A stretch of 64,000 nucleotides of DNA from Bacteroidales bacterium (GCA_049968755.1 JBMFQE010000005.1:18188-82187), one strand, 5' to 3'. Positions 4,548-63,573 are shown, counted from the first letter of the stretch. Numbers and translations: made by a program. Notes: a model not told the origin generated them from the sequence alone.

Positions 4548-5888
4548 ATGCTTTGTCGAAGACGTTGCTTGTCGTCCTGCAAAAGGTTGGCAATGTTGTG
4601 TATGTTACTTTTTTCGATTCTTTTGCATGCCCAATCGGATGGTAGCCTACAACCAGTAGCTCATCCGAAGAAGTTTCCTGCGCTGTACTATGAATATCGT
4701 ATCGAGGAACTAAGTAAAACTACCCCCATTCGGCTCGACTATAATGCCGATGTGCAGAAGTATATAGATTTATACCTTGATACCCGGGCCGATCGGTTGT
4801 CGCGTTATCTTGCATTGAAAGATTTTTATTTTCCAGTTTTCGAAGCTGCACTCGATCGTTACGATTTACCGTTGGAGCTAAAATATTTGCCGGTTGTTGA
4901 GTCGGGGCTCGACCCTCTGGCTCGTTCCCCTTCTGGTGCTATGGGACTCTGGCAATTGTTGTATCCTTCGGCCAAATTTTTGGGTTTGAATATTACCTCG
5001 TACAAAGACGAACGTTGCGACCTTTATCTTTCGACCGATGCTGCATGTAGGTATTTAAAATATTTGTATTCGCTATTTAATGACTGGCAGTTAACGCTGG
5101 CTGCCTATAATGGAGGACCCGGTGAGGTACGTAATGCTATTGCACGCTCGGGCGGTAAAACTAATTTTTGGGAACTCCAGCCTTACCTGTCGGAACAAAC
5201 TCGCTGGTACGTGCCAGCTTTTATCGCTATTGTTTATCTGATGAATAATGCTGAGGCACATGGCATTCGCCCTGCTACTATATCATGGCCTTCGATCGAT
5301 ACGCTTAAAATTTCTCATGCTGCCGAATTTGCCCGAATTGCCGAGAAAATTAACATTCCCATCCAGCAGCTGCGAGAACTTAATCCTGCCTATCGAAAAG
5401 ATTTTATCCCTGCTTCCGATACGCCCCAGATTCTTGTTTTGCCTTCCAACAAAATTTTGCCCTTCCTTAAATATGAGTATCAAATTTATGCCCTTTCCGA
5501 TACATCCGAATATTTTAAGCACGTGCAGTCGAATGTCGATACTGCGGGCAAGGTAATGGTGCTATATACCGTAAAAACGGGCGATTTTTTGCACAAAATT
5601 GCCCTGGAGAAGGGTTGCTCGCCCGAAAGCATTAAAGCATGGAATAACTTATCTGCCGATCAGCTTAAAGTCGGACAGATATTAAAATTGTGGTTGCCTA
5701 AAACATCCGCTGTTGCTCCCCGCGAGAATTTCTTTTATTACACGGTTAAGAAAGGCGATACGCTGTATTCTATTGCCGAAAAATTTCGTTGCGATTCTAT
5801 CAACGACATCAAACTTGTGAATAATATTGCGGATGAAAAAATTAGGGTCGGGCAGGTATTAAAAATTCGGGTGGCTGTAGCTGAATGA
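4548..5888 (+). CDS. membrane-bound lytic murein transglycosylase (MltD-like) with two C-terminal LysM domains
   Basis: SLT core (VVESGLDP...AMGLWQL...AAYNGGPG) and two LysM repeats (YTVKTGDFLHKIA..., YTVKKGDTLYSIA...). The start may be 4593, which gives a signal peptide MLCMLLFSILLHAQS. Confidence 0.85.
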   Translation: MLCRRRCLSSCKRLAMLCMLLFSILLHAQSDGSLQPVAHPKKFPALYYEYRIEELSKTTPIRLDYNADVQKYIDLYLDTRADRLSRYLALKDFYFPVFEAALDRYDLPLELKYLPVVESGLDPLARSPSGAMGLWQLLYPSAKFLGLNITSYKDERCDLYLSTDAACRYLKYLYSLFNDWQLTLAAYNGGPGEVRNAIARSGGKTNFWELQPYLSEQTRWYVPAFIAIVYLMNNAEAHGIRPATISWPSIDTLKISHAAEFARIAEKINIPIQQLRELNPAYRKDFIPASDTPQILVLPSNKILPFLKYEYQIYALSDTSEYFKHVQSNVDTAGKVMVLYTVKTGDFLHKIALEKGCSPESIKAWNNLSADQLKVGQILKLWLPKTSAVAPRENFFYYTVKKGDTLYSIAEKFRCDSINDIKLVNNIADEKIRVGQVLKIRVAVAE

Positions 5889-5894
5889 TTTGCA

Positions 5895-6407
5895 TTAACG
5901 CAGTTCTCTAATAACCTTATCAACAAGATCCGACTCAAACCCTCGTTGGAAGCCAAATTGAAAAAGTTTCATATAGCGGGTATAGGGATCCAGGTTGGTA
6001 GGTAGTGTTTTGAGTTTTTTAACGAGTTCCTCGGTTAATTTTTGCACGTAAACATCCTCATCCAGTTCGTTTAGGGTTTCATCAATTAACGTTTCGCCAA
6101 TCCCTTTTTTTAAAAGACTATACTTGATTTTAAGTTTTCCCCACCCATCGAATCGGAGCTTATCGCTGGCAAAGGCTTTGGCAAATCTCTTCTCATCGAT
6201 ATACCCTTCATTCTCAAGGTATTGAACAATGGAGGCTTTTTCTTCTGCCGACAGGGGAAGTGAACTTAGTTTTTTCATCACATCACTTTTGCACCGCTCC
6301 ATTTTACTGCAATATCTAGCTATGCTGAGTCGAATGTCATCCAGCGAAAGTTCGGGTTGAGCAGTTTTTTTAGCCATGTTGCAATGGGTTATTTGGGGTA
6401 AATTCAA
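5895..6407 (-). CDS. recX: recombination regulator RecX
   Basis: A ~160-aa three-repeat helical protein with RecX-like segments (YCSKMERCKSDV, EGYIDEKRFAKAF). The alternative start at 6377 cannot be excluded. Confidence 0.75.
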   Translation of the reverse strand: MNLPQITHCNMAKKTAQPELSLDDIRLSIARYCSKMERCKSDVMKKLSSLPLSAEEKASIVQYLENEGYIDEKRFAKAFASDKLRFDGWGKLKIKYSLLKKGIGETLIDETLNELDEDVYVQKLTEELVKKLKTLPTNLDPYTRYMKLFQFGFQRGFESDLVDKVIRELR

Positions 6408-16510: not shown

Positions 16511-16615
16511 GATTTGCTATATTCCCATGCCCGGCTGCGTGATTTCCAACCATTTATGCGTTCAACCATTACATGGCAGACTATATTCGAACCCATCGGG
16601 GTCGTATGTTAATTG
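16511..16615. repeat. single copy of a degenerate intergenic repeat family (related to 63381-63573)
   Basis: It shares the exact 16-mer CGGGGTCGTATGTTAA (16597-16612 = 63539-63554). It also shares TTTGC..ATT(C/T)CCATGCCC and a CCATTACATGG/CATGTAATGG core. Confidence 0.7.
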
Positions 16616-30309: not shown

Positions 30310-31746
30310 TTAGATACCAAAGGCATAGTATGCTATCACCCCATTGGGATAAACACCTTCAATATATACCCCTCCGCGGGTATTATTGAGAATTTTTTTC
30401 AGCTCGGCAATTGAGGTTACTGGTTTATTGTTCATTCGTGTAATGATGAAACCTTCCTCAATCCCAGCCCGACTAAATTTTCCCGGAGCAAGCTCAACAA
30501 TTTTTACTCCGTATCTAATACCCAGATTCCTCTTGTCCTCTTCGGTGATTTCGGCAAACTTTGCGCCAAAGATTACTGTTTCGGAAATATCCGTATTTTT
30601 AACAACTTTTGTTTCTCCCTGCAAGTTTCTCAATACAACGTCAAAAGTTTTTTCTTTATTGTCGCGCAATACGGTAACTTTTACTTTGTCGCCTGGACGG
30701 TACTTGCTGAGTTGTTCCTGAAGTTCAGCTGTATTCTGGACGGGTACGTCGTTAATTTTTGTTACTACATCGCCTTTTTTAATTCCTGCTTCTTTGGCAG
30801 CCCCTGTTTCGCGAACATCGCTTACATATACACCCATGGTGGTAGCAATATCGTTTTGTTTAGCAATCTCGGCGTTCATATCGGTGGGAGTGATACCCAG
30901 GAAGGCTCGCTGTACCACACCGTATTCGCGAAGATCGTCAACAACCTTTTTTACTATGGTCACCGGGATAGCAAAGGAGTTGCCCGCATAGCTACCCGAT
31001 GGAGAAAGTATAGCCGTGTTAATCCCCACCAGTTCGCCACGGGTGTTGACCAGTGCACCACCGCTATTGCCGGGATTAAGTGCGGCATCGGTCTGTATAA
31101 ACGATTCGAGCCGGTAGGTATCGTTGATAATATTAAGATTACGTGCTTTTGCACTTACAATACCAGCGGTTACTGTCGAGGTCAAATTGTAAGGATTACC
31201 AACGGCAAGCACCCATTCCCCTACACGCAGGGCATCGGAATTTCCGTAGGGAATGTATGGAAAATTATTTCCATCGATCTTGAGTAGAGCCAGATCGGTG
31301 CTGGGATCGCTGCCAATTAGTTTGGCATCAAACTCGCGATTGTCATTCAACTTAACTACAATTTCTTCGGCCCCCTTGATAACGTGGTGGTTGGTTACAA
31401 TGTAGCCGTCGGGACTGATAATAACCCCCGACCCAAACCCAACTACAGGTTGTTCGCGGGTGATAGTACCATCACCGTAAAAAAATTCGTAAATAGGATT
31501 ACGGTAGGTAGTTTCAACCTTTGACTTTGTCCGCACATGTACCACAGCATGAATGGTTTGCTCGGCTGCATAGGTGAAATCGATGGGTTGTTGGCCAGTA
31601 TCGGAATACGATACCTGACGGGCATAATTGGGATAATTATACACTACCTGGGGCTTATGGTAAAAATGATGGTAGGCTGCTACCGATATAAGTGCGCTGA
31701 ATATTGCTATCAACGCTGTCTCGAAATAATATCTTCTTGTTCTCAT
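30310..31746 (-). CDS. htrA: periplasmic serine endoprotease HtrA/DegQ family with two PDZ domains
   Basis: Catalytic triad context (TNHHV, DLALLK, GNSGGALV) and two C-terminal PDZ segments. Confidence 0.92.
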   Translation of the reverse strand: MRTRRYYFETALIAIFSALISVAAYHHFYHKPQVVYNYPNYARQVSYSDTGQQPIDFTYAAEQTIHAVVHVRTKSKVETTYRNPIYEFFYGDGTITREQPVVGFGSGVIISPDGYIVTNHHVIKGAEEIVVKLNDNREFDAKLIGSDPSTDLALLKIDGNNFPYIPYGNSDALRVGEWVLAVGNPYNLTSTVTAGIVSAKARNLNIINDTYRLESFIQTDAALNPGNSGGALVNTRGELVGINTAILSPSGSYAGNSFAIPVTIVKKVVDDLREYGVVQRAFLGITPTDMNAEIAKQNDIATTMGVYVSDVRETGAAKEAGIKKGDVVTKINDVPVQNTAELQEQLSKYRPGDKVKVTVLRDNKEKTFDVVLRNLQGETKVVKNTDISETVIFGAKFAEITEEDKRNLGIRYGVKIVELAPGKFSRAGIEEGFIITRMNNKPVTSIAELKKILNNTRGGVYIEGVYPNGVIAYYAFGI

Positions 31747-32111
31747 AATATTTTGATTTTTTGTTGATTAATGATTGATTTCTTTTTTTCAAAGTTGGTC
31801 AAAATTTATACCGCTGACAAATTGTCGTTGTTAAGGGATGTTAAGGAGGATTGTTAAAAAAAGTAAAGTGAAATTAATTTCTAAAAGAAATCGGGATAAA
31901 AAGCTCAGAATATTTGCAAATTGGGATATAATAAAACGGTCCTTGTATCCTCGAATGCGGCATAGTAATAGCATTTTACCAAAAAATAACCCTTCATCCC
32001 GTTGGAAGGAATGACAGATATCTTTCTTACCTGATTAGTTGTGGCAAAAGTCAATTTCCAGGGATAATCCTGATAGTATGGGCTAAAATTTTTTTTACCC
32101 AGCGAGATTCG

Positions 32112-35100: not shown

Positions 35101-35830
35101 TGAACAAGGTTCGAATGGCGACAGGGAAATGGCATGGGCTCTGTATCTGGCTGGATTTGATGTCAAGGATGTTCACATGACCGATATCATTACAGGACGC
35201 GAAACACTCGACGATGTGCATTTCGTTGTTTTTGTCGGTGGTTTTGCCAACTCCGACGTATTGGGTTCGGCAAGGGGATGGGCAGGCGCATTTCTATACA
35301 ACCTACAGGCAAAACAAACGCTCGATCGTTTTTATGCACGTCACGATACCCTGAGCCTGGGAGTATGTAATGGTTGTCAGCTGATGACAGAGCTAAATCT
35401 TATCTATCCGGAGCATCAGCAGCATCCCCGGATGAAACACAATAGAACACATAAGTTCGAATCGCATTTTGTTAATGTAACCATACTTGAAAACAATTCT
35501 ATAATGCTTAAGTCGCTTCGGGGAAGCAGACTTGGAATTTGGGTAGCTCATGGAGAGGGACGTTTTCATTTGCCCATGGCGGAAGAAAACTATCATATTC
35601 CAATGAAATATAGCTACAGCGATTTTCCGGGTAATCCCAACGGGAGCGATTACGATGCAGCGGCAATATGCTCGGTCGACGGACGACATCTGGCTATGAT
35701 GCCTCACCTTGAACGTTCTATTTATCCATGGAATTGGGCTTATTATCCCCATCAACGGAAAAACGATGAGGTAAGCCCCTGGATTGAGGCCTTTGTGAAT
35801 GCAAGGGAATGGATTAAGCAATCACGATAA
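32132..35830 (+). CDS. purL: phosphoribosylformylglycinamidine synthase (large single-chain PurL)
   Basis: A ~1230-aa protein with an FGAM synthase core (SEHCRHKIF, AETHNFPT, GAATGTGGEIRD) and a C-terminal glutamine amidotransferase (GVCNGCQ, HGEGR). The start is ambiguous (32132 or 32141). Confidence 0.95.
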   Translation: MLNMIYYFQTENSYIVVDSIRELGGVDIEKLNWLLSGKRIEVEVIEGYFVGPRREMITPWSTNAVEITRNMGIEGIVRMEEFFPVASADSTYDRMLQALYHKLTPEIFHIDRQPEPIRFIEDLESYNQQEGLALNTDEIVYLKQLSRKLGRLLTDSEIFGFSQVNSEHCRHKIFNGTFIIDGKEQSSTLFQLIKKTTQQNPNRVVSAYRDNCAFIQGPVVEQFAPQRADVPSIFVTRPMETVISLKAETHNFPTTVEPFNGAATGTGGEIRDRMAGGKGAFPIAGTAVYMTPYPRNDQRPWELAIPPRKWLYQTPEDILIKASNGASDFGNKYGQPLICGSVLTFEHSEKDQLYSYDKVIMLAGGVGYGLKKDSQKGSPEKDDRIVMMGGDNYRIGMGGGAVSSVATGEYNDTIELNAVQRSNPEMQKRVFNVIRGLAEMDNNPIISIHDHGAGGHLNCFSELVEPEGGEIDIARLPIGDPTLSAKEIIGNESQERMGLLLKNDDIQLVRRIAERERAPMYEVGKITGDGNFSFVDSRTGEKPLNLQLVDMFGNPPRSVLIDSTHLKTYEEPTYENEKIQEYLAWVLQLEGVGCKDWLTNKVDRSVTGRVAQQQTVGELQLPLSNVAVVALDYLGQRGIATAIGHAPIVGLVNEQHGSILSIAEALTNIMWAPIEGGLRGVSLSANWMWPAKQPGEDARLYRAVEAASNFALQLGINIPTGKDSLSMTQKYPDGRMVYAPGTLIVSAAAEVTYIRKVVNPALVPDIDTILVYIDMSQAPFALGGSALGQVLNKIGGSTPTVKDPAYFASVFNAIQLLIQEEKILAGHDISSGGLITALLEMNFPNTRGGMNIDLNTLAEKDWIKILFSENPGIIVQISNEDKEPVANFLKGKGITFHLIGKVTPERKILIKKGNQVLSVDIDAMRDIWYRPSYLLDRRQSGETPALERYQNYKRLPLQYTFSEKFTGQLSQYGLTLRRNSPSGIRAAIVREQGSNGDREMAWALYLAGFDVKDVHMTDIITGRETLDDVHFVVFVGGFANSDVLGSARGWAGAFLYNLQAKQTLDRFYARHDTLSLGVCNGCQLMTELNLIYPEHQQHPRMKHNRTHKFESHFVNVTILENNSIMLKSLRGSRLGIWVAHGEGRFHLPMAEENYHIPMKYSYSDFPGNPNGSDYDAAAICSVDGRHLAMMPHLERSIYPWNWAYYPHQRKNDEVSPWIEAFVNAREWIKQSR

Positions 35831-35863
35831 ATATTTATTTATGTCAAACCTAAAAAATGACTG

Positions 35864-35967
35864 ATGAAACACCCATGTTTCTGCGAACGCAAACACAATA
35901 GTGATAAAATTGCGAACATGGGTGTTCCATCATACCTTTAAAAATTAATTTTATTATGATGAAAAAA
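35864..35967 (+). repeat. copy A of a ~100-bp duplicated leader cassette (hairpin 35868-35926) ending in the fabD start codon
   Basis: Near-identical to 41065-41167, with 2 substitutions, a net 3-nt indel and a 1-nt indel. Confidence 0.9.
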
Positions 35968-36837
35968 GCATACGTATTTCCAGGACAGGGCTCACAGTTT
36001 GTGGGTATGGGAAAAGACCTGTACGAAAGTTCACCAGTTGCGCGGGAATTGTTTGAAAAGGCGAACGATATTCTGGGCTTCCGAATTACCGACCTGATGT
36101 TCTCGGGTACGGATGAAGACTTAAAGCAAACCCGTGTAACTCAACCTGCTATTTTTTTACATTCGGTTATTGTTGCAATTGTAGCAGGCGATACATTCAA
36201 GCCCGATATGGTTGCTGGGCATTCGCTGGGAGAATTTTCGGCTCTGGTAGCGAGCCGTGCACTGAGCTTTGAAGATGGATTGGTGCTGGTTTCGAAGCGG
36301 GCAATGGCCATGCAAAAGGCCTGCGACCTTCAGCCTTCTACAATGGCTGCAATTTTAGGACTTGACGATGAGGTGGTAGAAGAGGTTTGTAAATCTATCC
36401 CTGACATTGTAGTGCCTGCTAACTACAATAGTCCTGGTCAGCTGGTAATTTCGGGTAGTATCAGCGGCATCGAAAAAGCCATTGATCTACTCACTGCGAA
36501 AGGCGCTAAACGAGCTTTAAAGCTGCCCGTCGGAGGAGCTTTTCATTCACCTTTGATGGAACCTGCCCGGCAGGAGCTGGCCGAAGCTATTGAAGGTACC
36601 CATTTTAATGCACCCATTTGTCCCATTTATCAAAATGTAATAGCAGCTGCTGAAACCAATCCTTTGACTATCAAAGAAAATCTGATTAAACAGCTTACTG
36701 CGCCTGTCAAGTGGACGCAATCTGTCCAGGCCATGGTAGCCGATGGTGCTACCGAATTTTATGAGGTAGGTCCTGGTAAGGTGCTTCAGGGATTAATTAA
36801 AAAAATTTACAAGGACGCCATAGTGGCCAGTTTATAA
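35956..36837 (+). CDS. fabD: malonyl-CoA:ACP transacylase
   Basis: FPGQGSQ and active-site GHSLGE motifs. Length 293 aa. Confidence 0.95.
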   Translation: MMKKAYVFPGQGSQFVGMGKDLYESSPVARELFEKANDILGFRITDLMFSGTDEDLKQTRVTQPAIFLHSVIVAIVAGDTFKPDMVAGHSLGEFSALVASRALSFEDGLVLVSKRAMAMQKACDLQPSTMAAILGLDDEVVEEVCKSIPDIVVPANYNSPGQLVISGSISGIEKAIDLLTAKGAKRALKLPVGGAFHSPLMEPARQELAEAIEGTHFNAPICPIYQNVIAAAETNPLTIKENLIKQLTAPVKWTQSVQAMVADGATEFYEVGPGKVLQGLIKKIYKDAIVASL

Positions 36838-40930: not shown

Positions 40931-41064
40931 CTTTTTATTTGCTTTTCTTCTGCTTTTTCTTAATCTTTACATTCTTCTCAGTAAGAGGATTTCAACAATT
41001 AAAGGAAAGAAAGCATTTAATTAAGCAATTCAACAAAGATAACTTGTGCAATAAACACTCACCT

Positions 41065-41167
41065 ATGAAATACCCATGTTCCTGCGAACGCAAACACAAT
41101 AGAAAAATTGCGAACATGGGTGTTCCATCATACCTTATAAAAATTAATTTTATTATGATGAAAAAAA
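41065..41167 (+). repeat. copy B of the duplicated leader cassette (hairpin 41069-41124) ending in the cotH-like start codon
   Basis: See copy A. Same arms, same A/T-rich linker and the same ATGATGAAAAAA start context. Confidence 0.9.
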
Positions 41168-43293
41168 TTGTATTGCTCTTTTGCATGTTGGGGTCAATAG
41201 GAGCTGGTGCCCAGGTTCCGTTTATTTCGCTTAACTCGGATACTACTCGTACAAAACGGGGATTTTCGTACTGGCTGGGTAATCAGGCACCTGCTGAAGA
41301 TTGGAAAAATCCAGCCTTTGATGACTCGCTATGGACAAAAGTAAACGTTCCTGCAGTGATAGGGTATGGCTGGCCGGTTATGCCTAAGGATTGTACTATT
41401 GTCATATCAAAAACCCCCAGCCTTTTTTTGCGCATCAAATTCAATGTTGATAACGTGTGGGATTGGGGTGATTTAAGTTTTTGGTCCGATTACGACGATG
41501 GATATATTGCATACTTGAACGGGCAGGAGATAATTCGGGTGAACCTGGGCAAGCAGGGAAGTGCGGTTGCATTCAACCAGCCCACCGACCGGTCGCACGA
41601 ATCGCATGTTTATAGACGATACGATGCACCCGTGGATGCATATTATATCGATTCTACGACGGTTCGATCGCTTATCCACCCGGGTGAAAATGTTTTTGCT
41701 ATTGAGGTGCATAACGATAGTGTTGCCAATGATTTATCTTTTGTCTGCGCGGTTTATAATTTGAAGAATAATGGTTGGTATAATATTTACAATCCGGTTT
41801 TTCGGTATTACCGTCAGGTGCCGCTCGATAGCTCAAAATTTCCTATTGTAGCTATCGAAACAGATGAAATGGGCATTCCCTATCTGCATACCCGGGTTCG
41901 GGCCCGGATGAAAATTATCGATAAGCCTGGTATAAAGCGACCTACCGATTGGCCTGTATACGATGGTTATATTTCCATTGAACGTAAAGGCGAGTCGTCG
42001 GCCTGGTTCCCGAAAATGTCGTTCAATGTTGAGACGCAAAACCCCGATGGTACCAATAACAACATTGCCCTACTGGGCATGCCTGCCGAAAATGATTGGG
42101 TACTTTTCAGCAGTTTTGCTGATAAAAGCCTGATAAAAACAGAACTGGTTTACATGCTGGGTCGTAAAATGGGCCATTATGAACCTCGTACGCAATATTG
42201 CGAGCTGATATACAATGGTGAGTACATGGGGTTGTATTATTTCATGGAAAAAATAAAAAGGGATAAAAACCGTGTAAACGTGGCCAAACGCGACTCTATT
42301 TTTCCCGAAAATGGAGGTTACGTTTTTAAATACGATAAGCCTAATAGAAAGGTAGTTCAATTCATTTACCCCGATGACGATGAAATTACAGAGGCTGAGA
42401 AAAATTATTTGATCAATTTTATTAAAAGTTTTGAAGCAACGCTAAAATCTCCCAGGTTTCTCGATCCGGTAGAGGGTTACCGACGTTACGTCAATCCCTA
42501 TTCCCTCATCGACTATGTTATCATTAACGAGCTTACGAAAAATTGTGACGCATATCTTTATAGCACCTATTTTTACAAGGATAGTCGTGGGGTAATAAAC
42601 TATGGACCCTTGTGGGATTACGATCTGGCATTTGGTGGTGCCAGCTGGCAGGAGGGTACGCTCACGTACAAATGGCAGTATGAGTTTAATACCGACCTTA
42701 ACATAAAGCTGATGCTGCGCGATACGGTATTAAAAAACAGGCTTGCAGCACGTTGGTGGGAGTTACGAGGAAGTTTTCTTTCCAACGATAGCCTGTTCTA
42801 CTACATAGATTCGCTATATCAGCATACCCACGATTCTCGGTTGCTCAACTATAGCGTGTGGCCTATAGAGGATAAGTACCTGTTTGGTCCCGATCATTAC
42901 GTGGCCTCTGCCGATGAGGAGGTTGCCTTCATCAAGGATTGGTTGCAAAAGCGACTTGCCTGGATTGATGCCAATATCGATAAAATATATTATCCGCTCG
43001 ACGTGAATTCGCCTACTTTTGCGTATAGCAAAACGGCCATTGAAGTGTATCCCAATCCGTTTATCGATCGACTGAGGGTGCGGCTACTGGGTGAAGCGGG
43101 GAACTATACTTTCATGCTTCAAACGCTCAATGGGCAAAGGGTGTACCAGCAAACTTTCTATGCTGCTGATGGTGAGATAAATACTTTTGAAATACCAGGT
43201 GTAGCCATTAATTCGCTCGGACGGGGCATGTACATACTAACGGTTTCGGTTAATGGTGCAGTAGTGCAGGCCGAGAAGGTTATCAAGCAATAG
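41155..43293 (+). CDS. secreted CotH-family (atypical kinase fold) protein with T9SS C-terminal sorting domain
   Basis: Signal peptide MMKKIVLLFCMLGSIGAGAQ. The central region has CotH-like segments (YCELIYNGEYMGLYYFMEKIKRD, WDYDLAFG). The last 85 aa are a Por-secretion tail. The ORF-track start at 40939 reads through the upstream repeat. Confidence 0.8.
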   Translation: MMKKIVLLFCMLGSIGAGAQVPFISLNSDTTRTKRGFSYWLGNQAPAEDWKNPAFDDSLWTKVNVPAVIGYGWPVMPKDCTIVISKTPSLFLRIKFNVDNVWDWGDLSFWSDYDDGYIAYLNGQEIIRVNLGKQGSAVAFNQPTDRSHESHVYRRYDAPVDAYYIDSTTVRSLIHPGENVFAIEVHNDSVANDLSFVCAVYNLKNNGWYNIYNPVFRYYRQVPLDSSKFPIVAIETDEMGIPYLHTRVRARMKIIDKPGIKRPTDWPVYDGYISIERKGESSAWFPKMSFNVETQNPDGTNNNIALLGMPAENDWVLFSSFADKSLIKTELVYMLGRKMGHYEPRTQYCELIYNGEYMGLYYFMEKIKRDKNRVNVAKRDSIFPENGGYVFKYDKPNRKVVQFIYPDDDEITEAEKNYLINFIKSFEATLKSPRFLDPVEGYRRYVNPYSLIDYVIINELTKNCDAYLYSTYFYKDSRGVINYGPLWDYDLAFGGASWQEGTLTYKWQYEFNTDLNIKLMLRDTVLKNRLAARWWELRGSFLSNDSLFYYIDSLYQHTHDSRLLNYSVWPIEDKYLFGPDHYVASADEEVAFIKDWLQKRLAWIDANIDKIYYPLDVNSPTFAYSKTAIEVYPNPFIDRLRVRLLGEAGNYTFMLQTLNGQRVYQQTFYAADGEINTFEIPGVAINSLGRGMYILTVSVNGAVVQAEKVIKQ
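43036..43290 (+). other. T9SS type A C-terminal sorting domain of the CotH-like protein
   Basis: VYPNPF...beta-sandwich pattern...GMYILTV...V(I/V)K at the extreme C-terminus, typical of Por_Secre_tail domains. Confidence 0.8.
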
Positions 43294-50574: not shown

Positions 50575-52773
50575 TTATTTTTTAATACTCCATCCGCCTT
50601 TAAGACCAAAGATAAACCAGGTGAGAGCAATTGCCCCTACCCCAAAAATGGTATCGCCAATGATGCGTAACCATTTAAATACGTTGATGTAGGGTTGTTG
50701 CATGAATTCGGCTGAACGGGCATACCACAATCCTTCTTTAACGCTTGCCACTGTTTGAGCCAGTCCAATTGGAAGTAAGCTAAGTAGCACCATAGCAATA
50801 AGCCCAATGTTGATGCTCCAGAAAGCAAATTTGAGCCATTTATCGTTCCATTCGGCCTGTAAATCCATATCGCGCAGCACAAAGAGCATAAGTCCAATAC
50901 CCAACATTCCGTATACCCCAAAGAGAGCTGTGTGTCCGTGAACGGGTGTGGTATTTAGTCCCTGCATATAGTATAGGGCAATGGGAGGGTTGATGAGAAA
51001 CCCAAAAATACCTGCACCCACCAGGTTCCAGAAGGCAACGGCCACGAAACAGTAGATGGGCCATTTGTATTTTCGCACCCAGTCGGTGCTCTGGGTCAGT
51101 TTCAGGTTATCGTAGGCCTCAAATCCCATAAGCGTAAGGGGTACTACCTCCAGCGCACTGAATGTTGCCCCAAGTGCCATTATAGAAGTTGGCGTACCTG
51201 TAAAATATAGGTGATGGAAAGTTCCAATTATCCCGCCCGATAGAAAGATGATAGTAGAAAAGAGAACGGCAGTAGTTGCGGTGGTCACTTTTATCAGTCC
51301 CAATCGCACAAACAGAAAAGCAGTAACTACAGCAGCGAATACTTCAAAGAATCCTTCCACCCACAGGTGAACTACCCACCAACGCCAATATTCTACAATA
51401 GCCAGATGAGTTTGTCTTCCCCACATGAGTCCAGCTCCGTAAAAAGCTGCAATGGCAATAGCCGAGATAAGAAATAATACTAAAAGGTTTTTGTTCTCCG
51501 TTTTTTGCTTGATAGCTGGCCATATGGCACGTCCCATTAATATAAGCCAAACCAACAGCCCCACGAATAGTAGCAGCTGCCAGAAACGTCCCAGGTCGAT
51601 GTATTCGTAGCCCTGATGGCCCAACCAAAAGTTTTCGATCAACCCCAGCTTTTGCATAACCCCCAGCCACTGACCGACAAGTGATCCCACTACGACAATG
51701 AGAAGAGCAATAAACAGGAAGTTTACGCCCAGCCGTTGGTACTTTGGTTCGTGACCCGAGATTACCGGTGCATAGTAGAGACCTGTTGCCAGCCACGAGG
51801 TTGCTATCCAGAAGATAGCCAGCTGAACATGCCAGGTTCGTGAGATAGAGTAGGGGAGTATATTGGCCAGGGGTATTCCATAGAGTCCCTGCCCCTCTAC
51901 ACCGTAGTGGGCAGTGATTACGCCCATGACAACCTGTACCAGGATAAGCAGGGTAACTATCCAGAAATATTTGAGTGTTGCCTTTTGTGAGGGAGTATTA
52001 GCCGTTGTTCCCAGCGGAAATTCTGCAGCAATACCCTCAAATGGTTCATCGCGTTTTCGAGCGTAATACCACACCATAAGGCCAATGCCTGCAATAAGCA
52101 TAATGACGCTAAACCCTGTCCAAAGTAGCAGTGCACCCGAGGGTGCATTCCCTACCAGTGCCTCGGCTGGCCAATTGTTGGTATAACTTATGTCTTGCCC
52201 TGGTCGATTGGTTACACATGCCCAGGCTGTCCAGAAAAAGAATGCGGTGAGTTTGCGAATTTTCTCTTTGTCGGTCAGCGTATTGGTTTTTATTGCATAT
52301 TGTTCTCTTAACCGGGCAAAAGCAGGATCGTCTGTAAACAGTTTTTCGTAATATTGGATGTTATTGGCAATTGCCTCCGCCCTGATGTCTGATATTACAA
52401 TGCTTTTTTGTGTAGCATCGTAGGTGTTCTTTCGAATGTCTTTTTGTAATAGCGCCTTTAAATATGCCTGCTTTTCTGTGGGAAGACTGTCGAACGAGGT
52501 TTGATATTCGCTCCGTGCCAGCTTTTCCAACATGAATACTGCTTCCCGATGAAGCCATTCAGCACTCCAATCAGGTGCCACGTACGAGCCGTGTCCCCAG
52601 ATGGTTCCCAGTTCATGCCCACCAATGCTTTGCCATACATTCTGCCCTTCACGGATGTCGGTACCTGTAAACAATACGGTTCCATCTGCTTTGACTACTT
52701 GTTCAGGTATCGGCGGTGCTTGATGATAAATTTCTCGCCCAAAAATGAGCAACACTGCAAAAGATACCGTCAA
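50575..52773 (-). CDS. norB: quinol-dependent nitric oxide reductase (qNOR; NorB/NorZ, heme-copper oxidase family); N-terminus interrupted by an in-frame TAA
   Basis: An N-terminal ~250-aa qNOR-specific periplasmic extension (GHELGTIWGHGSYVAPDWSAEWLH), then 12+ TM helices with His ligands (HHLYFTG, HGHTALFGVYGM). See the finding on 52789-52812. Confidence 0.9.
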   Translation of the reverse strand: MTVSFAVLLIFGREIYHQAPPIPEQVVKADGTVLFTGTDIREGQNVWQSIGGHELGTIWGHGSYVAPDWSAEWLHREAVFMLEKLARSEYQTSFDSLPTEKQAYLKALLQKDIRKNTYDATQKSIVISDIRAEAIANNIQYYEKLFTDDPAFARLREQYAIKTNTLTDKEKIRKLTAFFFWTAWACVTNRPGQDISYTNNWPAEALVGNAPSGALLLWTGFSVIMLIAGIGLMVWYYARKRDEPFEGIAAEFPLGTTANTPSQKATLKYFWIVTLLILVQVVMGVITAHYGVEGQGLYGIPLANILPYSISRTWHVQLAIFWIATSWLATGLYYAPVISGHEPKYQRLGVNFLFIALLIVVVGSLVGQWLGVMQKLGLIENFWLGHQGYEYIDLGRFWQLLLFVGLLVWLILMGRAIWPAIKQKTENKNLLVLFLISAIAIAAFYGAGLMWGRQTHLAIVEYWRWWVVHLWVEGFFEVFAAVVTAFLFVRLGLIKVTTATTAVLFSTIIFLSGGIIGTFHHLYFTGTPTSIMALGATFSALEVVPLTLMGFEAYDNLKLTQSTDWVRKYKWPIYCFVAVAFWNLVGAGIFGFLINPPIALYYMQGLNTTPVHGHTALFGVYGMLGIGLMLFVLRDMDLQAEWNDKWLKFAFWSINIGLIAMVLLSLLPIGLAQTVASVKEGLWYARSAEFMQQPYINVFKWLRIIGDTIFGVGAIALTWFIFGLKGGWSIKK

Positions 52774-52836
52774 TACGGCTAGGAAAATTTACCATAATCT
52801 TCTTGTTCTCATGATATTTGGTTTTAGTTATACCGA

Positions 52837-53972: not shown

Positions 53973-54199
53973 TTATTTGAAAACGGATGAAATGGCAAGT
54001 GATGATGTTGAGATTGTGTTTACTGTCTGCTCAAATTTTACATGAATATTGTTTTTGCAACGAATGCCAAAATTGTTTCTTTTCTTCAATAATTTTCTCT
54101 TCTGATAGTTTCAATTTATTGGCTTATCAGAGGATCAACCAGTTAAAATTGGGTTTTAGGCAAGTCCAATAAAAATTTATGTAACATAAAAAAAATGTT

Positions 54200-54207
54200 T
54201 AATTTTG
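54200..54207 (+). promoter_or_regulatory. candidate -7 promoter box (TAATTTTG) driving the riboswitch-btuB transcript
   Basis: Matches TAnnTTTG immediately upstream of riboswitch helix P1. Confidence 0.45.
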
Positions 54208-54392
54208 CGCTGTATTGGTTCCCGCAAGGGATTAAAAGGGAATCCGGTGTGAAACCGGAGCTGTCCCCGCAGCTGTAATCCTGTTCCTGTGTATCAGGAA
54301 TGTGCTTTTAACACCTCTGCCACTGTCCCGCAAGTAAGGGATGGGAAGGCGTTAAAAGTCAGGAAAGCCAGAAGACCTGCCAGTACAGCATT
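54205..54392 (+). promoter_or_regulatory. cobalamin (B12) riboswitch
   Basis: Conserved core GGTTCCCGCAAGGGATTAAAAGGGAATCCGGTGTGAAACCGGAGCTGTCCCCGCAGCTGTAA and B12-box region GCCACTGTCCCGCAAGTAAGGGATGGGAAGGCG. P1 pairs CTGTATTGGT (54210-54219) with GCCAGTACAG (54379-54388). It lies upstream of a TonB-dependent receptor. Confidence 0.92.
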
Positions 54393-54420
54393 TCGTAGCT
54401 TTCGGGTGAAAAGCAAAGAA

Positions 54421-54498: not shown

Positions 54499-56412
54499 AT
54501 GCGGTATTTTTATTTGGTTATATTATTGTTCAATCTATCTGGCATAACAGCTCTGTCTGCTGGTGCCGACAGCATTATTATCAATATTGATGCGGTGGAG
54601 GTATCGCGTCCCCGCTACGAGGTATTGTCGATAGGGGCTACGGTTCAGTCTGTCGATACTTTTTTACACAAAATAAGCCGTAATCTTTCTCTACCCGATT
54701 TGCTAAGTTTTGCGGGATTGAATATAAACAACTATGGCCCGGGTGGACTATCAACCCTGGCTGTCAGGGGGATGTCGGCTTCGCATACTGCCATTGTATG
54801 GGACGAGGTGAATCTTCAGAGTCCTATGAATGGTCAGGTAAATCTGTCGGTAATACCTTCCTGTTTTTTCGACCGTGCCAGCATACAGTATGGTGGTTCA
54901 GGGGTTAACTATGGAAGTGGTTCTATGACCGGCATTGTACATTTGGGCACTGCCAATATTTTTCAACAATCAAACCAGCTATGGATTTCGCCAGCTTTGG
55001 GTAGCTTTGGAAATAGAAGTATGGGTATGGGATATAAGCTGGGTAATCATCGGCTTGCCACTTCACTCAAAGCCTTTCTTCAGCAATCCGATAACGATTT
55101 TCCCTATAAAAACACGGCCGACTTCTACCAGCGTACTGTCCGGCAAACCAATGCTGGTTTAAAACAATATGGTATTTTTCCCCAGCTGGCGGTACAGACC
55201 TCTGAACGTTCGTTGCTGAAAGCCTCGTGCTGGATACAGCAATACAACAAGGATATTCAAACCATGATGACCAGCACTACGCCTAATCAATCGCACCAGG
55301 ACGATAGGAACATCTGGTTAAATGTGCAGTGGAAATATGTCGACTCAGCCTATGTGCTCTCGCTGAGAAATGCCTACCTGTACAATCAGGTACTTTATAC
55401 CGATGCTCAGCAAACGACAACCGATAACCATTCGCAATCGTACATTACCGAGCTGGAATCGAGGGTGTGGGTTCGCAAGAACCAATGGTTGCAGGCTGGG
55501 CTTAATTATACTTATGATAAAGCTTTTTCGGGTGGATACAGTAAAAGCCCAACCCGCCAGCGGACATCCCTGTTTATGCAGTACCGCATCGAAAATATTG
55601 TCCAAAGGTTAAATATGGTGGTGGGTTGCCGGCAGGAATATGTGTCTTCTTTTCTTCCATTGGTATACAGTTCGGGACTTGAATATAAACTCAATTCTCA
55701 TTGGCGGGTAACGACCAATATTTCCAGAAATTACCGAATCCCTACCCTTAATGATCTTTACTGGAAGGAGGATGCGTTTGCACGCGGTAACCCGTCCCTC
55801 AAACCCGAGTGGGGCTGGTCAGCTGAGGTGGGTCTGCATCAACAGCAAATCTGGGGTAATATGCGGGTTGAAGCCTCGCAAATGTATTTCTATAACCACA
55901 TTTACAACTGGATTGTATGGCAACCTGATGCCATAACCGGCAAGTGGCAACCTGTAAATAAGTTGCAGGGAAAATCGGAGGGACTCGATTTAAGGTTTAA
56001 AACCTCTTACGAATCTGTCAGATTGCGCTGGATGGTAGCAGCCTCTTACCAATACACCTATGCACGTATGATGCAATCCAATGGGCAGTGGAGCAACTAT
56101 CCCCCCGATTATGTGCCAGCTCATCGGGCAAGCATCAACCAGATGTTTTCCTACAAAAATATTTCGGTGGGTTATATCCACAATTACACAGGCCCAAGAT
56201 ATTCGCTGGGTAGCCGTTTACCATCCTATCAGGTTGCCGACCTGTTCTGGCAATATTTGCTTTATAAAAATCAACTTAGGGTAACCCTTCAGTTTCGTAT
56301 CAACAATGTGTGGAATGAATTTTACCAGGTGCGACAGTATTATGCTATGCCGCTTCGCAACTATTTGTTCATCCTGATACTTGAATTATCAGCCAAACCA
56401 AATATTTATTAA
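54499..56412 (+). CDS. btuB: TonB-dependent outer-membrane receptor, BtuB-like (vitamin B12/corrinoid uptake)
   Basis: Signal peptide, plug domain (LAVRGMSASHTAIVWDEVNLQSPMNG) and a 22-strand barrel-length C-terminus. It is controlled by the upstream cobalamin riboswitch. Confidence 0.85.
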   Translation: MRYFYLVILLFNLSGITALSAGADSIIINIDAVEVSRPRYEVLSIGATVQSVDTFLHKISRNLSLPDLLSFAGLNINNYGPGGLSTLAVRGMSASHTAIVWDEVNLQSPMNGQVNLSVIPSCFFDRASIQYGGSGVNYGSGSMTGIVHLGTANIFQQSNQLWISPALGSFGNRSMGMGYKLGNHRLATSLKAFLQQSDNDFPYKNTADFYQRTVRQTNAGLKQYGIFPQLAVQTSERSLLKASCWIQQYNKDIQTMMTSTTPNQSHQDDRNIWLNVQWKYVDSAYVLSLRNAYLYNQVLYTDAQQTTTDNHSQSYITELESRVWVRKNQWLQAGLNYTYDKAFSGGYSKSPTRQRTSLFMQYRIENIVQRLNMVVGCRQEYVSSFLPLVYSSGLEYKLNSHWRVTTNISRNYRIPTLNDLYWKEDAFARGNPSLKPEWGWSAEVGLHQQQIWGNMRVEASQMYFYNHIYNWIVWQPDAITGKWQPVNKLQGKSEGLDLRFKTSYESVRLRWMVAASYQYTYARMMQSNGQWSNYPPDYVPAHRASINQMFSYKNISVGYIHNYTGPRYSLGSRLPSYQVADLFWQYLLYKNQLRVTLQFRINNVWNEFYQVRQYYAMPLRNYLFILILELSAKPNIY

Positions 56413-63380: not shown

Positions 63381-63573
63381 CTACTACCCTATGGATTCGT
63401 ACAAGAAAACATCCAATCATGTAATGGTTATCTACTAATATTCGACTCCTACGGGGTCGTTGGTTTGCGAATTTTCCATGCCCATTCATTGCATGGCATC
63501 CAATCATGTAATGGTTAGTTACAAAAATACTACCCCTACGGGGTCGTATGTTAAGTGGCCATGAAAAGGCATG
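63381..63573. repeat. tandem intergenic repeat (two good 88-bp-period units plus a degenerate leading unit)
   Basis: CATCCAATCATGTAATGGTTA occurs at 63410 and 63498. CCTACGGGGTCGT occurs at 63448 and 63535. A degenerate CTACCCTATGGATTCGT lies at 63384. The family member at 16511-16615 shares an exact 16-mer. Confidence 0.8.

Follow-up and report, generated by a model that had tools for sequence, protein, structure and literature searches.

How does nearly the same folded sequence of about 100 nt come to stand in front of two unrelated genes? In the window, by which we mean the whole 64,000-nt stretch of Bacteroidales DNA analysed here, one copy (copy A) lies between purL and fabD and a second (copy B) between pth and cotH, 5.2 kb away on the same strand. 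These gene calls, made in the original prediction, are right, and the CotH-like protein also has a weak match to a T9SS sorting-domain family, under the Pfam cut-off. Is the cassette a leader that brings fabD and cotH under common control? Does it terminate one transcript and promote the next? Or is it a small mobile element? Judged by presence and absence in related genomes and by copy patterns, both cassettes are probably copies of a small, non-autonomous mobile DNA element of a large Bacteroidota family, with integration specific to ATGAAA.

Two copies and their empty sites

The duplication itself is not in doubt. Copies A (35864-35964) and B (41065-41163) are about 95% identical in a pairwise alignment, and of two 29-30-mers taken from the unit the window contains exactly two instances each, whereas 100 dinucleotide shuffles contain none. 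When 35864-35967 is aligned with 41065-41167 there are four differences in all: C/T at 35870 (A) versus 41071 (B), T/C at 35881 (A) versus 41081 (B), TGAT versus A in the loop, and one additional A in the tail of copy B. The 12-13-bp inverted repeat that had been described for each copy is present in both (Table 1). The alignment also agrees with the earlier description of the changes within it, both substitutions being C/T changes in the 5' arm opposite a G and the net 3-nt indel falling in the loop, so that each copy has one C-G pair and one U.G pair at the substituted positions. The fold energies are -29.5 and -26.5 kcal/mol, and 0 of 200 shuffles fold as well. A covariance model of the family, R1, was built from 49 sequences with the window copies included, and its scan of the window found just copies A and B. 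The R1 unit of copy A is 101 nt, the upstream ATGAAA and the 95 nt inserted after it. Both units start and finish with ATGAAA. The start context common to the two copies, ATGATGAAAAAA, arises because the element ends in TATG and is followed by a regenerated ATGAAA, one member of a 6-nt direct repeat around the insertion.

FabD homologues were used to reach related genomes. A second MAG of the same species (L008, GCA_049968955.1) has copy A base for base. The purL|fabD site is empty in L002-L007 (FabD 94%, DNA about 80% identical) and in L009 (FabD 91%). In L002-L007 the purL-fabD spacer is 32 bp, reads ...ATGAAAAAAGC and lacks the element, and in L009 it is likewise short; blastn of the window against L002 gives two segments whose subject ranges share ATGAAA and no more. 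The pth|cotH site is empty in the sister species L001 (FabD 96%, DNA about 88% identical), where it reads ...CCTATGAAAAGAATC; here CACTCACCTATGAAAAGAATC corresponds to ATGAAA, 87 nt and ATGAAA in the window. By comparison with these empty sites, the window copies are insertions with clean ends, 95 and 93 nt long, each made at the ATGAAA of the gene itself. Both insertions are flanked by an ATGAAA direct repeat, which makes the boundaries of copy A movable by up to 6 nt. The proposal of a leader shared for the co-regulation of fabD and cotH is not supported, since the sister species lacks the cotH copy and six more distant relatives lack the fabD copy.

The fabD site of L001 holds a different insert that folds poorly (z = -0.4) and has a similar tail; it is a decayed family member. 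L001 also has about 680 additional nt (5207-6029) between its HtrA-like gene and purL that the window lacks. At 5798-5938, on the minus strand, there is a decayed family copy, ATGAAACGGGCAGG...GGTTCCCTCCGAT, with an nhmmer E of about 1e-3 to the L001 fabD insert.

The two insertions differ in what they do to the old reading frame. The old start of copy A leads into a frame of 25 codons, closed by TAA. Copy B keeps the frame: the one that opens at 41065, or at TTG 40939, is continuous with cotH, giving an ORF of 40939-43293. This longest CotH ORF, begun at TTG 40939 or ATG 41065, would add at least 31 residues ahead of the signal peptide, and the true cotH start is likely ATG 41155/41158. The CotH N-terminus could therefore be over-extended by gene callers. 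The additional CotH peptide that copy B would encode had no match in a protein-universe search.

Table 1. Positions of the element's features in the window (copies A and B) and of other filled fabD starts
Feature	Position	Strand	Evidence or detail
Copy A, upstream ATGAAA: original fabD start and Lys codon, now 5' member of the repeat	35864-35869	+	Empty site GTTGAAAAATGAAAAAAGCATATG in L002-L007; blastn overlap exactly ATGAAA
Copy A, inserted 95 nt	35870-35964	+	R1 91.7 bits, E = 2e-12 over 35864-35964; absent from L002-L007 and L009; identical in L008
Copy A, hairpin H1	35867-35930	+	z = -6.0; inverted repeat; family covariation at columns 9/67 and 11/64
Copy A, inverted repeat	35868-35879 / 35915-35926		AACACCCATGTT / AACATGGGTGTT
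Copy A, inner helix of H1	35888-35892 / 35910-35914		CGCAA / TTGCG
Copy A, CA-rich loop motif	35889-35898		GCAAACACAA
Copy A, conserved guide-like segment GTTCCATCATA	35924-35934	+	GTTCCAT invariant in the family alignment; helix 2 covaries
Copy A, TATGATGAAA, with 3' member of the ATGAAA repeat	35955-35964	+	fabD ORF 35956-36837; helix 2 columns 72-78 / 102-108
Copy A, 3' strand of helix 2, within TATGATGAAA	35955-35961		TATGATG
Copy A, closing ATGAAA	35959-35964		Regenerated fabD start ATG 35959; additional in-frame ATG 35956
Copy B, upstream ATGAAA: original cotH start	41065-41070	+	Empty site CACTCACCTATGAAAAGAATC in sister species L001
Copy B, inserted 93 nt	41071-41163	+	R1 83.2 bits, E = 7e-11 over 41065-41163; absent from L001; z = -5.7
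Copy B, inverted repeat (hairpin arms)	41069-41081 / 41112-41124		
Copy B, GTTCCAT	41122-41128		
Copy B, helix 2	41126-41132 / 41154-41160		CATCATA / TATGATG
Copy B, closing ATGAAA	41158-41163		Regenerated cotH start; additional ATG 41155
Filled fabD starts	L001 9876-10006; L038 6912-7006; L078 4707-4759; window 35864-35964		

A family of folded repeats in the Bacteroidota

The cassettes belong to a widespread Bacteroidota family of small folded repeats that is apparently undescribed. Its unit consists of (G)ATGAAAC, then a hairpin whose loop is CA-rich, then GTTCCATC, a tail rich in A/T and finally NNNGATGAAA. The element is about 90-105 nt long with a GC of 0.25-0.38 (about 30%). The hairpin arms vary by subfamily (CCCACATGT/ACATGTGG, CGAGCATGT/ACATGCGA, CACCCATGT/ACATGGGT and others), and the loop motif ACACAAACAC is conserved across subfamilies with differing stems.

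Eighty fabD loci from named genomes were examined by nhmmer and a motif scan, and the same architecture was found ahead of fabD in a Tangfeifania MAG (L038) and in SZUA-471 (L078). A search pattern derived from these two, GTTCCATYNKAYN{1,4}TTAAAAN{10,35}ATGAAA, identified at least 120 loci in JGI metagenome contigs, mostly full units. Among the metagenome matches listed, R1 supports at least about 110 copies at E<1e-5. It also supports copies in Sphingobacterium, the Tangfeifania MAG and Prolixibacteraceae; the fabD loci, 1.54 Mb in all, contain 10 copies, with Sphingobacterium and Prolixibacteraceae represented among them. The window copies have all the parts by which R1 defines the family (ATGAAAC, H1, GTTCCATC, tail and NNNGATGAAA, with H1 and helix 2 paired). 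As they are inside its training set, the independent support for their membership is the family pattern together with the match to L105/L190, the nearest relative among the matches listed. Their own subfamily is rare: exact 20-24-mers were found 0 times in 185,579 species genomes, the JGI metagenomes and IMG/VR, the last searched with a two-arm pattern. Plasmids and phages gave only chance matches by blastn. Two IMG/VR contigs, L214 (7498-7598) and L216 (6287-6387), hold an identical full-length copy (102 bits); they are the sole real R1 matches in 2.9 million viral contigs and may be prophage or misclassified host DNA.

Members of other lengths were also seen. Eight longer ones of 127-143 nt (L095, L121, L155, L204, L145, L116, L123 and L208) have an additional G+C-rich hairpin in the H1 loop, e.g. 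CCGAGCTTGCGAGCTCAGCGAAGC. Short deletion derivatives of 53-72 nt (L078, L151, L195 and L196) keep ATGAAAC...GTTCCAT and the tail.

The literature searched holds no description of the element; papers outside the searched library could hold one. The original prediction had not recognised the hairpin as a named RNA family, and Rfam 15 indeed has no match at either copy that reaches a gathering threshold. Its sole match in the window is a cobalamin riboswitch (RF00174, 112 bits) at 54199-54398 (+), directly upstream of a TonB-dependent receptor gene (54499-56412), an ordinary arrangement. A permissive Rfam scan of 35780-36020 gave only noise from eukaryotic miRNA and snoRNA models, with E = 3-10.

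The distribution of the copies carries several signs of movement. Among the matches listed, the downstream flanks differ in every copy, and identity within a contig has a median of 0.88 versus 0.71 between contigs. ATGAAA is present at both ends, including in copies that were not chosen by the search pattern. The 5' flank of the upstream ATGAAA is an ordinary A/T-rich start context, with G at -1 in 30%. Head-to-tail tandems with one common ATGAAA occur in L091, L136, L161 and L200, and a further tandem, in L203, joins two different subfamily members, which indicates a second insertion and not slippage. Twelve contigs have two copies, and in 4 of these the copies lie in opposite orientation within a few kb. 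Of the three roles in the original prediction only the third, that of small mobile intergenic element, is supported, by the empty sites in relatives, by more than 100 copies before unrelated genes and by the tandems. It had also been considered that dozens of copies unrelated to gene starts would argue against a leader. The many copies exist, but about 70% of them, among the matches listed, are sense-oriented and coincide exactly with a gene start. An in-frame ORF of at least 60 codons follows 47 of the 68 unique copies versus 29% of control ATGAAA sites, and about 15 copies lie in plain intergenic DNA with no gene after them, both counts again being among the matches listed.

A family member occupies the fabD start in no fewer than three, and possibly four, separate lineages of the roughly 85 sampled (Table 1). 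Since fabD begins with ATGAAA in most sampled Bacteroidota, it is a standing target. Enrichment at fabD is not clear, with 3-4 of 85 fabD starts filled versus 5 other copies in the same loci, the normaliser of about 150 ATGAAA starts being a rough estimate. An old leader specific to fabD was considered and rejected, as the metagenome scan shows the unit before many unrelated genes.

In two Sphingobacterium species, copies in L062 (515-610) and L068 (915-1007) occupy the same place ahead of a trkA-like gene (MKYIVLGLGHFG...). One is intact (61 bits) and the other decayed (30 bits), and the pair includes a compensatory variant, ATGAAAT/ATTCCAT. Comparison of the two points to old copies, vertically inherited. 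Together with the fabD site filled in both the window and L001, this suggests that some copies have long been tolerated, which would also fit a useful RNA.

Pairing within the element and a model for its insertion

A two-helix model was scored on a structure-blind MAFFT alignment of 49 copies. In it 85.9% of cells are paired, and the covariation score is 0.259 versus 0.085 +/- 0.009 for shuffled alignments, 0 of 500 of which reach 0.259; with the partners slid it is at most 0.061. Helix 2 is formed by CATCNNN, just after the hairpin, and NNNGATG, ending in the working start codon. Its complementarities were not constrained by the search pattern, and its columns include AU 27 / CG 11 / UA 9 and GC 34 / UA 13. 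RNAalifold on the same alignment independently predicts helix 2 and recovers helix 2 only; it misses H1 because the arms are misaligned by indels and contain tandem G.A. The main extraction step partly selected for pairing in H1, and in an unselected test the arms had at most one mismatch in 30 of 117 cases versus 1-2 in controls.

In copy A the 5' arm of H1, AAACACCCATGTT, pairs with the 3' arm given in Table 1, and the outer pairing ATG(A)AAC / GTT(C)CAT contains a conserved A.C mismatch. GTTCCAT is invariant in the 49-copy alignment, and in L062, L079 and L109 the pair ATGAAAC/GTTCCAT has become ATGAAAT/ATTCCAT (C-G to U-A). About a quarter of copies have tandem G.A/A.G in H1, which is favourable on the plus strand alone; G.U over A.C (32 vs 19) is a mild excess only. 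The earlier claim of a plus-strand structure under selection is supported at the level of the family, through two covarying helices and the plus-strand tandem G.A. Its assignment to RNA does not follow, as RNA and single-stranded DNA are not separated by these data.

The segment GTTCCATC is complementary to both junctions, with GATGAAAC as its left-hand partner and NNNGATG as its right-hand one. In copy A the guide-like segment is GTTCCATCATA, and its complements are GATGAAAC at the 5' junction and, at the 3' end, TATGATG. When RNA ensembles are computed, the partner of the CAU in GUUCCAU is either the 3' AUG (mean 0.54) or the 5' AUG (0.32); the 3' AUG is mostly paired, with a median unpaired probability of 0.04. 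For the window copies the ensembles favour the upstream pairing in copy A and the downstream pairing in copy B.

What the insertion does is shown by the junctions. It leaves ATGAAA on both sides, and the element supplies C, H1, GTTCCATC, the A/T-rich tail and NNNG. With a Met-Lys start as the target, the downstream ATGAAA keeps an intact reading frame behind a new A/U-rich leader, and the old start codon stays upstream at the foot of the hairpin. In the model proposed for how it is made, H1 and the guide-like GTTCCATC(NNN) would be recognised by a trans-acting enzyme on the folded sense strand, much as HUH/Y1 enzymes recognise hairpin and guide in IS200/IS605 and in REP elements. The junctions would be explained equally well by a site-specific recombinase with a common ATGAAA core as its substrate. 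By analogy, single-strand transposition of the HUH/Y1 type is the closest working model, and we have low confidence in any particular enzyme mechanism. The GC skew is positive across the window plus strand, which would make the strand that folds, in both copies, the template of the lagging strand, as with IS608; the opposite-orientation pairs in 4 of the 12 two-copy contigs speak against any strict rule of this kind. Pfam searches of all large ORFs found no transposase or integrase in the 64-kb window. When 1,350 ORFs from the 120 loci listed were clustered, no gene family recurred beside the copies, the families being housekeeping only.

Genes would survive insertion only when their own start codon was the target, and insertions inside genes would be lost. 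Such a filter would explain why about 70% of copies are on sense gene starts. As the start codon is rebuilt, the element could enter essential genes, fabD among them. Within the mRNA the old AUG would be hidden in H1 by the same pairings, or the new AUG in helix 2, and on this model the element probably dampens fabD and cotH translation, or makes it conditional, as a by-product. Tentatively, these features may define a previously unrecognised class of start-codon-homing elements, in which one hairpin and a guide-like segment that pairs with both junctions direct integration at ATGAAA, rebuild the start and install an AUG-pairing leader, making the element a mobile translational control module. 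The enzyme that moves such an element would then be either a new activity or a known one newly used.

Other readings and known systems

Could the regulatory effect be primary and the spread secondary? The cassette would then be a cis-regulatory mRNA leader first of all, a portable translational switch, thermometer or protein-binding module. Helix 2 would hide the start, the upstream AUGAAAC would compete for CCAUC and so free the start, and the CA-rich loop would bind a factor. We regard this reading as unlikely. It accounts well for a helix 2 that covaries and pairs with the functional AUG, as a translational control RNA would, and for the low unpaired probability of the 3' AUG in the RNA ensembles. 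Conservation of the loop motif where stems differ, the variable hairpins within the loop (L095, L121 and L145), which are as in structured RNAs, the placement of most copies sense at gene starts and the long retention of some copies are also in its favour. However, the downstream genes have nothing in common, and at the genes concerned the element is missing from close relatives. Tandems and the copies without a following gene make no regulatory sense, the upstream reading frame is unconserved in length or frame, and Rfam has no matching family. Helix 2 is just 6-7 A/U-rich pairs around a loop of about 20-25 nt, and as free RNA it is presumably marginal by nearest-neighbour rules. Two more specific candidates were rejected. 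A hammerhead ribozyme, suggested by CUGAUGA...GAAAC, has no stem II and no Rfam match, and CUGAUGA is not universal in the family. A conserved leader peptide is contradicted by an upstream frame that is 4-53 codons long and variable in frame.

It is very unlikely that the duplication was a one-off local event, in which template switching during replication, or gene conversion, used ATGAAA microhomologies to make the cotH copy from the fabD leader and no dedicated mobility system took part. Two copies on the same strand, 5.2 kb apart, 95% identical and bounded by 6-9 nt of microhomology are what such an event would leave, and replication could stall at the hairpin. But the same architecture with ATGAAA junctions occurs more than 100 times on unrelated contigs and in unrelated taxa, heterologous tandems included, and the fabD copy is itself inserted relative to L002-L007 and L009.

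Hardly credible is a junction cassette that terminates purL or pth and promotes the downstream gene, or an invertible promoter with inverted repeats: a strong hairpin does lie between gene ends and gene starts, but the stem has no U-tract and is followed by CCATCATACC, neither hairpin appears in a terminator scan, many family copies have no preceding gene end and there is no consistent position after genes, a promoter scan gives no site inside either unit on the gene (+) strand, the sole overlapping one (35982-35953, at the copy A 3' end) is on the minus strand, the regional count of such sites equals the shuffle expectation, the Bacteroidota -7 motif TAnnTTTG is not seen in the unit, and the arms are just 30-35 nt apart, known invertible promoters being segments of roughly 150-300 bp.

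If the cassette is a mobile element, as we think probable, which known elements does it resemble? MITEs, REP/REPIN, PATEs, attC sites, terminators and Rfam families were each considered, and in each case the element lacks a defining feature or, for Rfam, a model match. By analogy it would work most like a PATE or a REPIN. PATEs, derived from IS200/IS605, are likewise non-autonomous, without terminal inverted repeats and with hairpins near their ends, and the junctions are compatible with insertion directly 3' of a fixed short target. The internal segment complementary to the junctions is like the pairing of guide and cleavage site in IS608. Unlike PATEs, the element has a 6-nt target, ATGAAA, in place of 4-5 nt, and it ends in the target hexamer; its two helices, H1 and helix 2, are dissimilar, its guide-like segment is 3' of the hairpin, and its copies occur in both orientations within a few kb. 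PATEs insert without duplicating the target; the junctions here fit both an insertion 3' of ATGAAA by an element ending in GATGAAA and a 6-bp duplication. No cognate tnpA/tnpB or full-length relative was found in 2.3 Mb of loci.

Like REPs and REPINs, the element is a short interspersed hairpin repeat with genome-specific subfamilies, and by analogy it may be moved in trans; H1 resembles a REPIN in having two inverted arms around a spacer. In contrast to REPs, which are palindromes of 20-40 nt, it lacks the GT[AG]G foot, having ATGAAAC/GTTCCAT instead, is A/T-rich where REPs are G+C-rich, has an additional asymmetric tail, and is fixed at gene starts rather than in 3' intergenic regions. No RAYT gene was found in the 64-kb window or beside the 120 loci listed. 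The REPs of the Bacteroidetes RAYT subclass 2.6 are short G+C-rich hairpins (PMC6006769), and the element's signature 7-mers are in none of the REPs tabulated there.

MITEs such as Correia/NEMIS and ERIC share with the element a non-autonomous unit of about 100 nt and presence/absence polymorphism between strains. MITEs are co-transcribed with their neighbours and can alter their expression, which by analogy may hold here. The ends of the element are direct (ATGAAAC... / ...GATGAAA), not inverted, and the inverted arms, 35867-35880 / 35915-35930 in copy A, leave a tail of about 34 nt outside. Its flanking repeat is always ATGAAA and not, as in MITEs derived from DDE transposases, an arbitrary sequence of fixed length, and its orientation is tied to the invaded gene. 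The Rickettsia palindromic elements (RPE) are small palindromic repeats that enter genes without destroying them, and copy B is in frame. Whereas RPEs sit within coding regions and are translated as an additional peptide, the element is at the start codon, its frame is unconserved and it has no sequence relationship to them. Finally, H1 read on the minus strand, ATGGAAC...GTTTCAT, has the attC form xxxxAAC...GTTxxxx with about 60 nt and a variable loop, and crossover at G|TTTCAT would give a 6-nt repeat. The attC consensus RYYYAAC/GTTRRRY (R''/R') is not matched beyond AAC/GTT, however, and the element has no unpaired central spacer, conserved extrahelical base, cassette array or intI; its copies are in conserved housekeeping synteny (fabD, cotH, the trkA-like gene and others).

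If this reading is right, a common small Bacteroidota element, absent from Rfam 15 and from the papers searched, rewrites 5' ends in ordinary genes and in essential ones, and the genes survive it. With ATG duplicated and copy B in frame, annotation errors such as over-extended N-termini and spurious small ORFs are easily made. Bacteroidota initiate translation without Shine-Dalgarno pairing, and the element would be a natural experiment on start choice under these conditions, in which one complementary segment is contested by two identical AUGAAA sites. That the target is an exact hexamer, apparently read through a short complementary segment, would be relevant to HUH enzymes and to programmable DNA insertion. 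R1 and the simple pattern offer a direct route to a census in any genome.

Two further repeats were noted in the window. One is a second, unrelated small repeat family, CATCCAATCATGTAATGGTTA ... CCCCTACGGGGTCGTATGTTAA, with two copies 87 nt apart (63410-63465 and 63497-63552) and a third, partial, 47 kb off (16560-16615); it has a short G+C hairpin, CCCC-TAC-GGGG, and may be REP-like. The other is a 29-mer, 90% identical between 31731-31759 and 52797-52825, that spans the starts of two unrelated minus-strand genes, both of which begin ATGAGAACAAGAAGAT (MRTRR). The ATG of the first site, at 31746, is the start of the HtrA-like gene. From the second ATG, at 52812, translation gives MRTRRLW and then TAA, after which the frame is open into a NorB-like ORF (50575-52773). 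A further start cassette common to two genes, a pseudogene or an error in sequencing could each explain this.
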